Part shown: one piece after another, positions 1 through 12,930 of the stretch
Layout of the letters: each line of letters begins with the position of its first letter
How positions within the stretch are numbered: the first letter of the stretch is position 1
Origin: Escherichia phage WPEC5
DNA length: 64,000 nucleotides
Sequence record: PV654397.1
Direction: 5' to 3' (one strand)
Notes under the pieces: generated by a model
Told to the model about the DNA's origin: nothing
The model's database searches: none
Seen by the model: the letters and a program-made list of their open reading frames with translations, nothing else
Program-made: the position numbers and the translations under genes

Positions 1-2
1 AT

Positions 3-647
3 TTGCCTTCTGCTGTAAATGACATGCGATATACGTTTAGTTATGGTTCAGTACTATGTCGATTGGATACGACTTCTATATACGCATGGGGACGAAACAC
101 AAATGGTGAATTAGGTCAGGGTAATGCAACAGCCATTGTTACTCCAAAACTATTGTCTGGTTCTTCTATTGCAATGGGTACTTCGTATAATGCTACTGCA
201 ATTGTTTCTGGTTCTGCATCGTTAGTTACGTGTGGTGGTCAGAATAGTGGTCAGTTGGGTAATGGTATTACTACTGATGGTAATGTATACACCTTTGGTG
301 TCAGGACATACCCAGGCGATCTTAATACAATAAGAAGTCCAGTGGATTGCAGTACAACTTACACCTCTGCATTTATGAGTCCAGATGGTATATATTACAC
401 TGGTGCTAACCGAAGTATGTTTGGTGGTATTAGTGGTGCTTCTACCGTTGCTGTATATACTAAATGTAGTGATTTACCAATAACATATTCTAATATAATT
501 CAGTGGAGTAGTGGTACTATAGGTGGTGCTATATGTAGTAGTACAGAGTTATACCAATGTGGTATAGGTAGATACATTGCTGGTGATGGTGCGAGCACAA
601 CCAGGTATGGATTTAGGAAGACACCATTACCTTGGGATACTTATTGA
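3..647 (+). CDS. RCC1-like beta-propeller repeat protein, array paralog (5' end outside window)
   Basis: ORF open to window edge; GxNxxG(E/Q)LGxGN blades (GRNTNGELGQGN, GGQNSGQLGNG); followed by hairpin terminator. Confidence 0.8.
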   Translation: MPSAVNDMRYTFSYGSVLCRLDTTSIYAWGRNTNGELGQGNATAIVTPKLLSGSSIAMGTSYNATAIVSGSASLVTCGGQNSGQLGNGITTDGNVYTFGVRTYPGDLNTIRSPVDCSTTYTSAFMSPDGIYYTGANRSMFGGISGASTVAVYTKCSDLPITYSNIIQWSSGTIGGAICSSTELYQCGIGRYIAGDGASTTRYGFRKTPLPWDTY

Positions 648-653
648 CATTAC

Positions 654-682
654 GCCAGTACTCTGTACTGGCTTTTCTTTTT
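654..682 (+). terminator. intrinsic terminator hairpin GCCAGTAC-TCT-GTACTGGC + T-run
   Basis: 8-bp perfect stem then TTTTCTTTTT right after stop codon; element recurs along the array. Confidence 0.7.
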
Positions 683-686
683 GTAT

Positions 687-701
687 TAAATATAGTATAA
701 T
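687..701 (+). promoter_or_regulatory. promoter-like motif TAAATA-N3-TATAAT
   Basis: conserved block ATTAAATATAGTATAAT 17 nt upstream of ATG, followed by AAAGGAGGG RBS. Confidence 0.5.
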
Positions 702-718
702 GAATAAAGGAGGGAATT

Positions 719-1909
719 ATGTTACCTTTTGTTAGAATGTTTGATTATGGGAATATCACACCTGAACCTCTTCAAATTAAGAAAATAATACCAACTGATA
801 CTGAGGTTGTTGTACTTTATACCGACGGTCAACTATACGCACGAGGCAGTAATAGTTATGGGAAGTTTGGTAGAGGAAATAATAATGCAGTAAGGTCGTG
901 GACATTAATTAGAGAAAATGTCAAAGATTGCTGGATGACACAAGGAACTTTGTTAGTACAAGATAATGACTTAAATTATTTTTATTGTGGATATGGTAGT
1001 CATATTGGTTTACCAACTAGTACTACTACGTTTTTAAGTTATAACCAATATATTGAAAATTTGTACACACAAAGTTCAAGTACTTCAATTAAACAGATGT
1101 ATGCAGGTACTACGTGGTTTACTTTCTTAATGGATAATAATACAATATGGAGTACAGGGTGGAATAGTGCTAGACAATTCGCAGATGGTACAGGAACTAC
1201 TTATCAAATATCAGATGGTTCATTTGTTAAAGCGGTAACACCAGATGTTGATATTGCACAAATAATGTCAACATATAACTGTGTAATGTTGTTTGATAAA
1301 CAAAATAATTTATATATTGGTGGTAGTACATCTGGCATAAGTACTAGTACCACATGGACACCATTTAATGAATATACTTTATATCAGCCAAGTACCACAT
1401 ATACAAAAACATTACAATATACTGTTTGTTCATTTGGTGCTGTCAGTGCTTTAGTAGAGAATCCAAGTACAGGAGCACGTCAGTTTCTAGTTGGTGGATT
1501 AGCTAATAATGGAGCATGGGGAAATAAAACTACATCTAGCACTGTTAATGGAGTTTTAGGAAATAATAGTGCTACATTACCACCCGGTACTTTGTATTCA
1601 ATTCATACTGGATACCCAGCACAATCTAGTATACTAGTTACGAGTGCAGGTGTATATGCAACTGGTTTAAATGCGAGTAGTTATGCTGGCACATTGGGTG
1701 TTGGTTATGATGCTACCATTGGTAAATTTACTGCATGTCCATTGCCGTCAGAAATAACATATTCTATGTATGATAAAATAAAAATATATCGCGGTTCGTT
1801 GCGTACTTTCCTAACTGCTGATATGAAAAATATATATTCAACCGGAACTTATGATGATGGTGGTCCTAGTACAAATAGATATGTTCTGGATACACCTAGA
1901 CAATTGTAA
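719..1909 (+). CDS. RCC1-like beta-propeller repeat protein, array paralog
   Basis: strong RBS; N-term MLPFVRMFDYGN; blades such as GSNSYGKFGRGNNNA. Confidence 0.9.
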   Translation: MLPFVRMFDYGNITPEPLQIKKIIPTDTEVVVLYTDGQLYARGSNSYGKFGRGNNNAVRSWTLIRENVKDCWMTQGTLLVQDNDLNYFYCGYGSHIGLPTSTTTFLSYNQYIENLYTQSSSTSIKQMYAGTTWFTFLMDNNTIWSTGWNSARQFADGTGTTYQISDGSFVKAVTPDVDIAQIMSTYNCVMLFDKQNNLYIGGSTSGISTSTTWTPFNEYTLYQPSTTYTKTLQYTVCSFGAVSALVENPSTGARQFLVGGLANNGAWGNKTTSSTVNGVLGNNSATLPPGTLYSIHTGYPAQSSILVTSAGVYATGLNASSYAGTLGVGYDATIGKFTACPLPSEITYSMYDKIKIYRGSLRTFLTADMKNIYSTGTYDDGGPSTNRYVLDTPRQL

Positions 1910-1916
1910 TGTAAAA

Positions 1917-1945
1917 GCCAGTACTTGATACTGGCTTTTCTTTTT
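1917..1945 (+). terminator. intrinsic terminator hairpin GCCAGTA-CTTGA-TACTGGC + T-run
   Basis: perfect inverted repeat followed by TTTTCTTTTT. Confidence 0.7.
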
Positions 1946-11008: not shown

Positions 11009-11014
11009 TATAAT

Positions 11015-11043
11015 GCCAGTACTATGTACTGGCTTTTCTTTTA
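11015..11043. terminator. bidirectional terminator hairpin between convergent genes
   Basis: GCCAGTACTATGTACTGGC + T-run; lies between + gene 9872..11008 and - gene 11041..11691. Confidence 0.6.
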
Positions 11044-11691
11044 CATATTATATAATGTGAATGCAGTTACTTTACCAGTTGTTGTTAGTTCATTATAAAG
11101 ATACTCCAAGATTCTCGCACACTCTAAGTATATCTCGATATCATCATGAATAAGTGAGTACTGAAATAGCTGTTCTTCAGATAATTTGTATTGACTTCCT
11201 TTTAATGAATTGAGAATATCTTTCACATCATCAAGTACTGGGTAAAGTACGAAATCTTCATCATATTTTGAAGCAATAAATTCAAATCCACCACCATCAG
11301 TACTAGATATACCAATCAGTACTTTATCAATCAAGTTAATGTTTATATAACGGTTGTGATTTGGGTGAATTGAAATCTCAAACATACGAGTACTGTTACA
11401 ATCAACATCAATATACAAATATACATCGTTGAATTTATAAGTTAAGCAACCGTACTCAAGAAAATCAGAGCAAATAATTGATGAGTTTTTTCTCGTCTCT
11501 GCGTAATGCATCTTGATATTCTTTTCACGCATAAGTAATTCGAACTTTGCACTAAACTTGCCACCAGCAAGATAGTTAGTATTAGGACGTTTGTAACTTG
11601 CAACTGGTCGGTGGGATGATGTAAAGTATTTTTTTGTGAATCGTTTATGTTTAGTGAAATATTCTTGATAGAACTTACTTCTTTTATTCAT
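11041..11691 (-). CDS. hypothetical protein (216 aa) interrupting the array
   Basis: long minus-strand ORF between array genes; no motif recognised. Confidence 0.6.
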   Translation of the reverse strand: MNKRSKFYQEYFTKHKRFTKKYFTSSHRPVASYKRPNTNYLAGGKFSAKFELLMREKNIKMHYAETRKNSSIICSDFLEYGCLTYKFNDVYLYIDVDCNSTRMFEISIHPNHNRYININLIDKVLIGISSTDGGGFEFIASKYDEDFVLYPVLDDVKDILNSLKGSQYKLSEEQLFQYSLIHDDIEIYLECARILEYLYNELTTTGKVTAFTLYNM

Positions 11692-11737
11692 GAGTACCTC
11701 AATTAAATCGCTGTAAAATTGTACATTATAAAATGAT

Positions 11738-11752
11738 TAAATAAAGTATAAC
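11738..11752 (+). promoter_or_regulatory. promoter-like motif TAAATA-N3-TATAAC
   Basis: TTAAATAAAGTATAAC 16 nt upstream of ATG 11769; same spacing as array cassettes. Confidence 0.45.
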
Positions 11753-11768
11753 ACAAGGAGATTTTATC

Positions 11769-12893
11769 ATGTTACCTTTCGTATTGTTATTTGATTATGG
11801 GAACGAAAAACAAGAAAGTTCTTATGATGTTAGTGTATATGGAAACAATAACTACATTTTAAATAAACAAACTGGAAACCTTTTTGCATCCGGTGCTGCG
11901 GCATTCATGGGTGATAACACAGTTAAGTATTATATTACCCAAATAGAATCAAATGTTCATAGCTGTGAGATAGGTTTCCTATCATCATGGATAATTAAGA
12001 AGGACAAAACTGTTTTCATTTTAGGAAACAAAAGCAGTATAGGATTAACTGGTTCGACAACATCATGGTTCGAAATTACAAATTTATTTTCTGCTGTTCC
12101 TGAAATATGGGACAACCTATTTGAATGTAAAGTTCAATTGGGATATAACTGTATACGTGTTATGACACCACTAGGATCAATCTATGCGATTGGTACAAAC
12201 ACTTATGGTGCATTGGGTACTGGTACTACATCCTCATCAACTTCGTTCGTTAAAAGTGGTGCTGTGGATGCTGTACGCATGGAATCAACAGAACGTTCAG
12301 TGTTCTATCAAAACAGTTATGGACAATGGTTTGGATGTGGTGATAACACATATGGTATACTAGGTCTAGGAACTACCGCTAGTCGTGTAAACTCATACAC
12401 CGCACCAGTATGGACTAATGCAGAAGCTGTTAGCTTCTCTAACCGTGGGATCATATACAGCCTCAATGGTACTCTATACTCATGTGGTGACAAAGTTAAT
12501 GGTCAGCTAGGGGATGGATATACACAAAGCATAGACGCAGCCAGGAGCACACCATACACCATAGGAACCGCATTCCAAATTGGTAAGGCAATAACATCAG
12601 CTACACAAGCATCAGCCAACGTATTCATTGGTAAAGATAATAAGTTCTATGGTACTGGTAGTATTGCTGCTGGTATAAATGGTAGTACTAGTGCTGCATT
12701 AAGTAAAGTTACTGCGTTATCAGCAGCACTACCACCTGACATTACATACAATGATATTATAACATTCAATACAGGGACCGTAACTTTTATTCAAGCAAAA
12801 GGACAACTATATTATGTTGGTAGAAGAACTTACATAGATAATAGTTCAGACGTTACCACACAGTTCAGTGTAATTGGTGGCTTAGATAATTAA
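11769..12893 (+). CDS. RCC1-like beta-propeller repeat protein, array paralog (outlying copy)
   Basis: N-term MLPFVLLFDYGN; YGALGTGTTSS, NGQLGDGYTQS. Confidence 0.85.
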   Translation: MLPFVLLFDYGNEKQESSYDVSVYGNNNYILNKQTGNLFASGAAAFMGDNTVKYYITQIESNVHSCEIGFLSSWIIKKDKTVFILGNKSSIGLTGSTTSWFEITNLFSAVPEIWDNLFECKVQLGYNCIRVMTPLGSIYAIGTNTYGALGTGTTSSSTSFVKSGAVDAVRMESTERSVFYQNSYGQWFGCGDNTYGILGLGTTASRVNSYTAPVWTNAEAVSFSNRGIIYSLNGTLYSCGDKVNGQLGDGYTQSIDAARSTPYTIGTAFQIGKAITSATQASANVFIGKDNKFYGTGSIAAGINGSTSAALSKVTALSAALPPDITYNDIITFNTGTVTFIQAKGQLYYVGRRTYIDNSSDVTTQFSVIGGLDN

Positions 12894-12899
12894 AATTAA

Positions 12900-12930
12900 T
12901 CCAGTACTATTATAGTACTGGATTTTTATT
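12900..12930. terminator. bidirectional terminator hairpin at strand switch
   Basis: TCCAGTACTATTATAGTACTGGA perfect palindrome + T-run between convergent genes. Confidence 0.65.

Follow-up and report, generated by a model that had tools for sequence, protein, structure and literature searches.

Arrays of genes for RCC1-like ("DNA condensation") proteins have been described in phages of the 121Q/PBECO4/phAPEC6 type: eleven RCC1-like proteins were reported in phAPEC6 and 13 in 121Q, their tandem duplication was noted, and both studies treat the proteins as RCC1/DNA-condensation homologs (Wagemans et al., 2020, PMC7247149; Buttimer et al., 2017, PMC5259590). We analyzed a 64,000 nt stretch of Escherichia phage WPEC5 (sequence record PV654397.1; hereafter, the window), which comes from a 121Q/PBECO4-like jumbo coliphage (Asteriusvirus) and which opens with the same locus and gene family. 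All ten N-termini visible in the array are variants of one 12-residue peptide, which we refer to as the tag. On balance, we favor the idea that the tag is a virion-docking peptide through which exchangeable, lectin-like modules would be incorporated into the particle, most likely on its outside, as accessory adhesins. The first part of this statement, that the tag is a virion-incorporation signal, is held with greater confidence than the statement as a whole.

Several described systems share features with the locus. The capsid targeting sequence (CTS) of T4 is a peptide of ~10 residues at the extreme N-terminus, which is portable to foreign cargo (PMC3012670). The receptor-binding proteins (RBPs) CBA120 TSP1-4, RaK2 gp526-534, and T7 gp17 combine a conserved N-terminal anchor with a variable binding part, and their genes lie side by side (PMC10253068). 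In T4-like phages, short repeated terminator and promoter motifs, known as promoter-early-stem-loop (PeSL) elements, flank variable genes and act as sites of homologous recombination, which gives rise to indels between close relatives (Arbiol, 2010, PMC2839356; Comeau, 2014, PMC4122927). We consider the WPEC5 locus to be a variation on these known kinds, and not a new category. Outside the phages, the N-terminal tail motif of adenovirus fibers is likewise a short peptide that anchors receptor-binding proteins with variable distal parts, in this case to the penton base. However, adenovirus is a eukaryotic virus with one trimeric fiber type per vertex and no gene arrays, and the sequence of its motif is unrelated.

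The array spans positions 1-12924 and comprises 11 plus-strand genes, ten of them complete and one cut at its 5′ end by the window edge. The cut open reading frame (ORF; 3..647) encodes the 3′ part of an RCC1-like paralog, with the blade motifs GRNTNGELGQG and GGQNSGQLGNG in its translation, and is colinear with g588 of phage fEgEco12, the N-terminus of which is MLPFARMVKYGN. It is followed by a tagged RCC1-like propeller gene (719..1909, 396 aa, N-terminus MLPFVRMFDYGN), a tagged Gly-rich protein (1982..2719, 245 aa, N-terminus MLPFARIVKYGN, PF21722-like/phrog_4474), and a second tagged propeller gene (2792..3922, 376 aa, N-terminus MLPFARMVKYGN). The remaining complete genes, all tagged and RCC1-like, lie at 4001..5176 (391 aa), 5186..6304 (372 aa), 6317..7465 (382 aa), 7480..8640 (386 aa), 8711..9856 (381 aa), 9872..11008 (378 aa), and 11769..12893 (374 aa), the last of which has the most diverged tag (MLPFVLLFDYGN, with synonymous TTC and GTA codons). 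A sequence-only reading of the window had counted one gene too many (12, with 11 complete), but its description of ten RCC1-type propellers and one Gly-rich protein is borne out by Pfam matches and by the blade motifs of the cut ORF. It was also right that a minus-strand gene breaks the array once. This untagged gene (11041..11691, 216 aa, phrog_34359) occupies the same place in fEgEco12 (g581), and lies between two bidirectional hairpins.

The ten visible N-termini conform to MLPF[AV][RL][MIL][VF][KD]YGN. The narrower pattern proposed by the sequence-only reading, MLPF(A/V)RM(V/F)(K/D)YGN, fits eight of them exactly, but fails for gene 1982, which has R-I, and for gene 11769, which has L-L. 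Mean identity across the tag is 81% at the amino acid level and 85% at the nucleotide level, whereas the RCC1 bodies behind it share a mean of 27% (range 22-33%). Among ORFs of at least 80 codons in the whole 64-kb window, the start motif ATG-WTH-CCN-TTY opens an ORF ten times, always at one of these gene starts. Judged by the identities, by this count, and by the contig scan described below, the similarity of the tags is not due to chance. With other lineages included, the consensus broadens to M-[LI]-P-F-x-[RQ]-[IML]-x-x-Y-G-N, and a short Pro-rich linker comes after it. Residues past YGN vary, no Glu is conserved within the tag or directly after it, and four of the ten window proteins have no early Glu at all. 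The tag is neither a signal peptide nor a transmembrane (TM) segment. Predicted mRNA structure around the Shine-Dalgarno (SD) sequence and the tag did not differ significantly from shuffled controls (z ~0). At 2781-2803 and 6302-6330, the SD AGGAGG may pair weakly with the tag's Pro-Phe codons CCUUUU, a complementarity that is lost in Salmonella phage Munch (CCA TTT).

The full 36-nt tag pattern was then used for a degenerate DNA scan of 2.9 million viral contigs. Twelve contigs matched, all from related jumbo phages (eleven genomes of 348-378 kb and one 109-kb fragment), and most of them carry several copies of the tag. All 79 matches that open a long ORF in the metagenome collection have bodies homologous to known tagged families. 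The other matches represent either true copies that have been cut or truncated or chance hits lacking an SD; in the only two unrelated long ORFs, the match lies inside a larger ORF. Over both collections, the tag is thus confined to this clade of jumbo phages. In Munch, 17 genes in a row open with MIPF[ATS][RK][IM][LM]xYGN, and Xanthomonas phage XbC2 has 11 genes opening MLPFPQLVQYGN; the tag also occurs in Yersinia phage fHe-Yen9-04, Cronobacter phage GAP32, Pectobacterium phage CBB, and Serratia phage BF. Across the clade, tagged genes form arrays of 5-17 members that show turnover. In contrast to the peptide, which is kept among phages of Escherichia, Salmonella, Yersinia, Cronobacter, Pectobacterium, and Xanthomonas, the surrounding DNA cannot be aligned. 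No tag was found at the right end of the RaK2 genome (305-346 kb), where its tail-fiber cluster lies, and the tag scan of IMG/VR returned no matching contig of RaK2 size.

A second class of tag, MLPFPIIS[NK]T[NKT], which has no YGN, stands beside the YGN class in Eneladusvirus and Mimasvirus-like genomes. It was found in Yersinia, Xanthomonas, and Serratia phages and in jumbo-phage contigs from IMG/VR, and is identical in a Yersinia and a Xanthomonas phage. This identity hints that the two classes may address two different docking sites.

Codon usage within the tag separates selection on the peptide from conservation of the DNA. Munch and other lineages show little or no amino acid change at P3, F4, Y10, G11, and N12, yet synonymous codons are used freely at these residues (all four GGN codons, TAT and TAC, and CCA, CCG, and CCT). 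The peptide is thus under purifying selection at the protein level. Within Asteriusvirus, however, codons 1-9 hardly vary even at synonymous sites (TTA in 44/44, CCT in 44/44, and AGA in 42/42), and this freezing points to an added DNA-level homogenization. The Leu2 codon is TTA throughout the clade.

The set of tagged proteins, drawn from ~16 jumbo-phage genomes or contigs, comprises 146 unique sequences. After removal of the first 14 residues, these proteins split into at least 10 body families that are unrelated in sequence. RCC1 and Kelch propellers make up 104 of the 146; the others comprise several ConA-like/LamG families (PF13385), Gly-rich proteins, and a few of no assigned type. In the window, all nine complete paralogs that are not Gly-rich match the RCC1-like domain PF25390 with E-values of 1e-8 to 8e-31, in every case below its gathering score of 150, and for seven of the nine an RCC1 repeat model (PF00415 or PF13540) matches above its own gathering score. 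A profile built from the propellers matches UVR8, HERC, RPGR, and RCC1 (E-values down to 1e-68), as well as BLIP-II. The Gly-rich gene 1982 has no Pfam match of its own, although its homologs match PF21722.

AlphaFold2 predicts a seven-bladed propeller for the product of gene 6317, with ~28 strands in seven groups (predicted local distance difference test score, pLDDT, 87; predicted template-modelling score, pTM, 0.87), and Foldseek relates it to viral RCC1-like proteins with TM-scores (template-modelling scores) of 0.65-0.83. The first strand of this model begins at residue 20, and residues 1-10 have a pLDDT of ~50 and no secondary structure. The Gly-rich product of gene 1982 is also modelled with confidence (pLDDT 91.7), and once more the first strand begins at residue 20 and residues 1-10 are disordered; across the two models, which represent unrelated folds, the pLDDT of residues 1-10 is about 45-50. 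Since the N-terminus is unstructured on two different folds, the tag and the Pro-rich linker form a flexible leader that lies outside either domain in the models. There, the leader behaves as is expected of a peptide that folds upon binding a partner. We also considered whether the tag might serve as the "Velcro" strand that closes the propeller, and rejected this idea, given that the first strand begins at residue 20, that residues 1-19 are unstructured, and that proteins other than propellers are tagged as well. No solved structure of a tagged protein or of a phage homolog was found by sequence, and profile and fold searches with the propeller returned generic relatives of the RCC1 fold only, none of them a solved phage structure.

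The folds of the bodies recur in distal fiber and adhesin modules of other phages. The best fold match of the Gly-rich body in the Protein Data Bank (PDB) is the cyanophage Pam3 fiber, although the match is weak, and there are fusions of Gly-rich homologs to fn3 or collagen-like repeats. RCC1-like propellers are found in proteins that are annotated as tail fibers or that have a T7 tail-fiber N-terminal domain (Littlefix and PollyC), and in phage PVP-SE1 the RCC1-like gp40 adjoins the tail-fiber gp41. Giant "virion structural proteins" contain modules that are matched by the LamG bodies. Outside the jumbo clade, many members of the Gly-rich family have N-termini of the form M[LIF]E[LMT][LM], as in PVP-SE1 gp19. 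The idea that other lineages put short tags of their own on the same bodies was not supported, as within PVP-SE1 only gp19 has M[LI]E[LM][LM] and gp40 differs; such a start is probably intrinsic to the Gly-rich family.

The variable C-terminal part, predicted to bind ligands, the clustering of the genes, and the presence of the products in virions (see below) are all features that the tagged proteins share with the RBPs of CBA120, RaK2, and T7. The difference lies in the anchor. Those RBPs have folded anchor domains of ~50-150 residues on trimeric fibers or spikes, whereas the tag comprises 12 residues and a Pro-rich linker, is modelled as disordered, and precedes modules that are apparently monomeric.

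Evidence that tagged proteins are part of the virion comes from published proteomes of related phages. Mass spectrometry (MS) of phAPEC6 virions detected gp003, gp005, gp006, gp007, gp009, gp010, gp549, and gp551 (PMC7247149). We mapped six of these eight to tagged ORFs and assumed that gp549 and gp551, at the other end of the record, are tagged; on that assumption, eight of 14 tagged proteins are MS-positive, an enrichment over the genome-wide MS rate with P~3e-5. In CBB, which has no RCC1 homolog, the tagged genes (CBB_536, 537, 548-554, and two more) encode LamG, Kelch, and other bodies, and 7/11 tagged proteins (536, 537, 548, 549, 551, 552, and 553) are MS-positive (P=1.6e-5 over the genome-wide rate). 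GAP32 gp001 and the homologs gp530 and gp531 are likewise reported in virions. The enrichment holds over RCC1 and non-RCC1 bodies alike, and therefore virion incorporation follows the tag and not the fold. We infer that the tag causes incorporation.

The sequence-only reading had interpreted the array as a set of variable proteins that interact with the host or are targeted to the virion, all behind one fixed N-terminal tag, and had likened it to the capsid-targeting peptides of T4 internal proteins and to the conserved anchors of variable receptor-binding proteins. The published MS data from phAPEC6, CBB, and GAP32 support virion targeting, and the clade-wide conservation of the tag as a peptide, its confinement to the clade, its attachment to at least 10 body families, and the flexible leader fit a portable tag. 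Profile searches and structure prediction agree on a propeller fold, and in relatives the locus is multi-copy and variable with the peptide kept on alignment, so that neither the lack of a propeller nor an invariant, single-copy locus with an unconserved tag, which that reading had named as contrary to it, was found.

The presence of these proteins in virions would also suit their database label, according to which they would be regulators of chromosome condensation or DNA-condensation proteins that organize the phage genome, with the shared N-terminus being incidental. Beyond virion presence, this explanation has in its favor the GenBank annotation name and a suggestion made by the authors of the phAPEC6 study (PMC7247149). 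However, the name derives from the RCC1 repeat fold alone, a generic seven-bladed propeller shared with UVR8, HERC, RPGR, and BLIP-II, and there is no Ran or chromatin in the host on which RCC1 proper could act. The bodies are low in Lys and Arg (K+R 6%), near-neutral (median isoelectric point, pI, 7.5), and rich in S/T/N/G/Q (43%), and with so little charge they do not look DNA-binding. Moreover, Kelch, LamG, and Gly-rich proteins, which lack any connection to DNA, bear the tag just as the RCC1 bodies do, and CBB has tagged virion proteins without having an RCC1 homolog. We consider this explanation very improbable.

Given that the proteins are in the virion, the question is where. We propose that the tag and its Pro-rich linker form a portable virion-docking peptide, which would be flexible until bound and become ordered upon binding a conserved acceptor site on the particle. 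By way of the tag, interchangeable, monomeric, lectin-like and beta-rich modules (RCC1-type propellers and the Gly-rich domain in the window, and Kelch propellers and ConA/LamG domains in relatives) would enter the virion. Their likeliest site would be the exterior of the particle, among the hair-like fibers or decorations that 121Q/CBB-type phages have on capsid and tail sheath, where the modules would serve as accessory adhesins for host-surface glycans. We place them outside because of the fold analogy, the neutral S/T/N/G/Q-rich composition, and the hair-like fibers of these virions. The fibers of 121Q and phAPEC6 form three rings on the sheath and are also located at the centers of capsid hexamers (PMC7247149), and CBB has 119-nm whiskers, the genes for which, its authors argued, should be among six MS-positive proteins that are absent from GAP32 (PMC5259590). 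Four of these six whisker-candidate proteins are tagged.

Several points weigh against this proposal. The external location draws on fold analogy and on electron microscopy (EM) densities that have not been assigned to proteins, and it is from fold types only that the modules are suggested to bind glycans or otherwise to interact with the host. The match to the Pam3 fiber has a low TM-score and no sequence support. MS coverage of the phAPEC6 RCC1-like proteins is low (3-17%), and GAP32, which is not reported to be hairy, likewise has tagged virion proteins. Judging from the codon pattern, part of the conservation of the tag within Asteriusvirus, where it is frozen at the nucleotide level, is gene conversion and not selection. 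Lastly, the phAPEC6 inner body and the T4 gp21-like prohead protease of the clade make an internal route, like that of the T4 CTS, plausible.

On such a route, the tag would send diverse proteins into the prohead scaffold core, from where they would be packaged with the DNA, perhaps in the inner body, and be ejected into the host to bind or inhibit host defenses or other host factors. Here as in T4, a short N-terminal peptide is the sole conserved element among diverse, fast-evolving virion proteins, and T-even internal proteins are also diverse and have in common only their N-terminal targeting peptide. The clade has T4-like head genes, including a gp21-like prohead protease/scaffold and T4 quasi-core genes. 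The inner body of phAPEC6 measures 91 x 18 nm, and the authors proposed RCC1-like proteins for it (PMC7247149). Virion MS is blind to inside versus outside, and BLIP-II, an RCC1-fold protein that the propeller profile matches, is a tight enzyme inhibitor. However, the tag has no sequence similarity to the T4 CTS, and by the T4 rule we found neither a conserved Glu nor a cleavage site of the (L/I)xE type where the tag ends or beyond, although the protease of this clade may differ. The cargo is also of another kind: bodies of 20-75 kDa that are neutral and lectin-like, encoded in arrays of up to 17 genes, as opposed to the small, basic internal proteins of T4. The same folds are distal fiber modules in other phages, and the low MS coverage is hard to square with an inner body of ~19 MDa (our estimate from the published dimensions). 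Taken together, we regard internal packaging as unlikely, though it is the main alternative.

The 5′ flanks of the tagged genes provide clues to their expression and evolution. A near-identical non-coding cassette of ~70 nt stands upstream of five genes (719, 1982, 2792, 4001, and 8711), at 654..718, 1913..1981, 2725..2791, 3936..4000, and 8647..8710, all on the plus strand. Its elements follow in the order of a hairpin (GCCAGTAC-loop-GTACTGGC), a T-run, a box (GTATTAAATATAGTATAAT), and an SD (AAAGGAGG). In the first cassette, the terminator hairpin lies at 654-672 and is followed by a T-run, the late-promoter-like box AAATATAGTATAAT, and the SD GGAGG; the second has the same succession of hairpin, T-run, late-like box, and SD; and in the third, the hairpin is predicted at -11.5 kcal/mol (z = -3.2). 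Within the window, this type of hairpin and the box are confined to the array, where a bidirectional terminator hairpin of the same CCAGTA..TACTGG type is found at 11015..11033, and another bidirectional terminator hairpin closes the array (12898..12924). The other four junctions, before genes 5186 (9 nt), 6317, 7480, and 9872, are tight (9-15 nt) and have an SD alone. From the distribution of cassettes and tight junctions, we predict the transcription units [719] [1982] [2792] [4001-7465] [8711-11008] [11769].

The layout of the cassette matches that upstream of a virion structural gene elsewhere in the window (25646-27157, minus strand, by PHROG match), which has a hairpin, a T-run, cTATAAATATAGT, ~22 nt, and the ATG; the shared layout can be written as hairpin, T-run, TA(T)TAAATATAGT, ~22-26 nt, ATG. 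In the structural gene, a terminator hairpin precedes a T4-late-like TATAAATA box, and the predicted late motif of the clade, ATAAATA, resembles T4 TATAAATA (PMC5259590). From the shared upstream layout and the clade late motif, we infer that the array genes are expressed late, together with the structural genes; the promoter and terminator activities of the cassette, with its T4-late-like box and SD, are predictions. A search for sigma-70 promoters found 55 against 66 expected from shuffles, with no sign of host-type promoters in the array.

The cassette does not end at the start codon. The repeat reaches 36 nt into the coding region, so that the tag codons form its 3′ end, and at the five junctions concerned the upstream 66-70 nt are conserved as strongly as the tag. 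This raises the alternative that the first 36 nt are conserved as nucleic acid only, as part of a regulatory or recombination cassette (for translation initiation, or as a gene-conversion tract), and that the peptide has no function. Besides the equal conservation upstream, the fixed synonymous sites of codons 1-9 in Asteriusvirus, the clade-wide TTA for Leu2, the location of indel breakpoints at cassette or tag, and the precedent of PeSL cassettes are in keeping with this alternative. It is at odds with Munch and the other lineages that keep the peptide with its synonymous sites free, with the retention of the peptide across six host genera in flanking DNA that cannot be aligned, with the four window genes (5186, 6317, 7480, and 9872) that have no cassette yet are tagged, and with the z-score of ~0 for mRNA structure at the start codon. 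Of all the explanations considered, we give it the least credence.

Comparison with the nearest match to the window, fEgEco12, reveals how the array changes. The match, at ~97.7% identity, extends over just 46% of the first 13 kb. The tagged genes of fEgEco12 number 15 (g595-g580); relative to this phage, the window has four extra genes and is without g585. The extra genes, for which fEgEco12 has no counterpart, are 4001 (84.5% identical to phAPEC6 gp006), 5186, 7480, and 8711. Colinear blocks extend over q1-2828, q2724-4048, q6298-7517, and q9859-13499, and the repeat q2724-2828 flanks the g585 indel. All four homology breakpoints fall in the cassette or the tag, within ~70 nt of a gene start (at +36, +47, or +37, or 13-70 nt upstream). 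Orthologous bodies can also carry different tag alleles: window gene 719 has VRMFDYGN where its phAPEC6 ortholog has ARMMNYGN, and the tag of fEgEco12 g594, VRMVKYGN, is chimeric. The position of the breakpoints, together with the differing and chimeric tag alleles, points to homologous recombination between short repeats. Such recombination between cassette and tag repeats would add, delete, or swap whole genes, with the result that the repertoire turns over fast between close relatives.

In these respects, the locus resembles the PeSL system. There are five cassettes in which a repeated terminator stem-loop and a promoter, here a predicted one that is late-like and not early, lie between variable genes, and 4/4 breakpoints in the comparison with a close relative coincide with cassette or tag. 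PeSLs, however, contain early promoters and occur in hyperplastic regions of small accessory genes, whereas the cassette described here has a late-like box, precedes genes for virion proteins, and continues for 36 nt within the gene itself, where it encodes a peptide that would be functional. A bolder version of our proposal is that Rak2-like jumbo phages have a peptide-addressed modular display system, in which a 12-residue "zip code" would suffice to attach any compact binding domain to a conserved acceptor, probably the hair-like fibers on capsid and tail, and in which the codons of the tag would double as a recombination handle for gaining, losing, and swapping modules. We put this forward tentatively, with less than even confidence.

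The array adjoins a second set of paralogs. Directly after it, seven small multi-TM membrane-protein paralogs (104-123 aa) are encoded in tandem on the minus strand (12929-15368), and similar small membrane-protein arrays adjoin the tagged arrays of CBB (CBB_539-546), fHe-Yen9-04 (g521-524), Munch (529-533), and fEgEco12 (g573-579), which suggests a conserved synteny of two paralog arrays. This arrangement lends something to a further alternative, in which the tag would act inside the cell, as a recognition site for a phage chaperone or assembly factor, as an N-terminal degron or timing signal, or as an export or membrane cue, and in which virion association would be secondary. The tag is short, flexible, N-terminal, and hydrophobic in pattern, and some tagged proteins were not detected in virions, as this alternative would allow. 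On the other hand, the tag is neither a signal peptide nor a TM segment, we identified no cognate chaperone, and the strong enrichment in virion MS would require an extra explanation. An intracellular role for the tag is in our judgment improbable.

The claim of the sequence-only reading that the arrangement is undescribed holds in part. The RCC1 array and the presence of its products in virions are published (PMC7247149; PMC5259590), but our search of the texts of those two papers found no dodecapeptide, no tagging of non-RCC1 proteins, no 5′ cassette, and no cassette-bounded turnover. Our literature search found no description of the dodecapeptide, of its portability over at least 10 families, of its exclusivity to the clade, of the second tag class, or of cassette-bounded turnover, and the jumbo-phage survey of Iyer et al. 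contains nothing relevant on the tag motif. Phages of the 121Q/GAP32/CBB group have conspicuous hair-like fibers on capsid and tail, and devote 10-20 kb to "DNA condensation" paralogs. Interpreting the tag as a docking peptide would recast these genes as swappable, virion-borne binding modules, and would supply a concrete list of candidates for the whiskers. If true, the composition of the whiskers and the reason for having up to 17 propeller genes would be explained together. A coding sequence that doubles as a recombination handle would extend the PeSL idea into the first codons of a gene. In practice, foreign proteins could be displayed on jumbo phages by means of the tag, and a 12-residue incorporation signal would serve phage display, host-range engineering of therapeutic jumbo coliphages, and the correction of widespread mis-annotation.

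Some annotations of tagged genes in phAPEC6 (MK817115) can be amended. Four tagged ORFs are unannotated (3-1142, 2434-3540, 6063-7250, and 7325-8056). The annotated start of gp002 (3506-4810) is 36 codons too far upstream, the true start being MLPFGRMIKYGN at 3614, and gp004 (7716-8018), a frame within the Gly-rich gene, is spurious. A truncated tagged ORF of 36 codons (MLPFGRMLKYGNIKPTLPEIKKLEPQ...*) is the same in two metagenome contigs (positions 7106 and 320), and looks like a pseudogenized copy of a gene similar to phAPEC6 gp010.

In the remainder of the window, GC skew is positive over the plus-strand array and negative elsewhere, tracking the switch in coding strand at ~12.9 kb. Two genes match PHROG "virion structural protein" families (25646-27157, minus strand, phrog_20398, and 45820-46977, plus strand, phrog_10468), and each stands alone amid small genes on the minus strand. 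Four tRNA genes (Thr-tgt, Asn-gtt, Met-cat, and Ser-gct) are clustered on the minus strand at 52786-55549.

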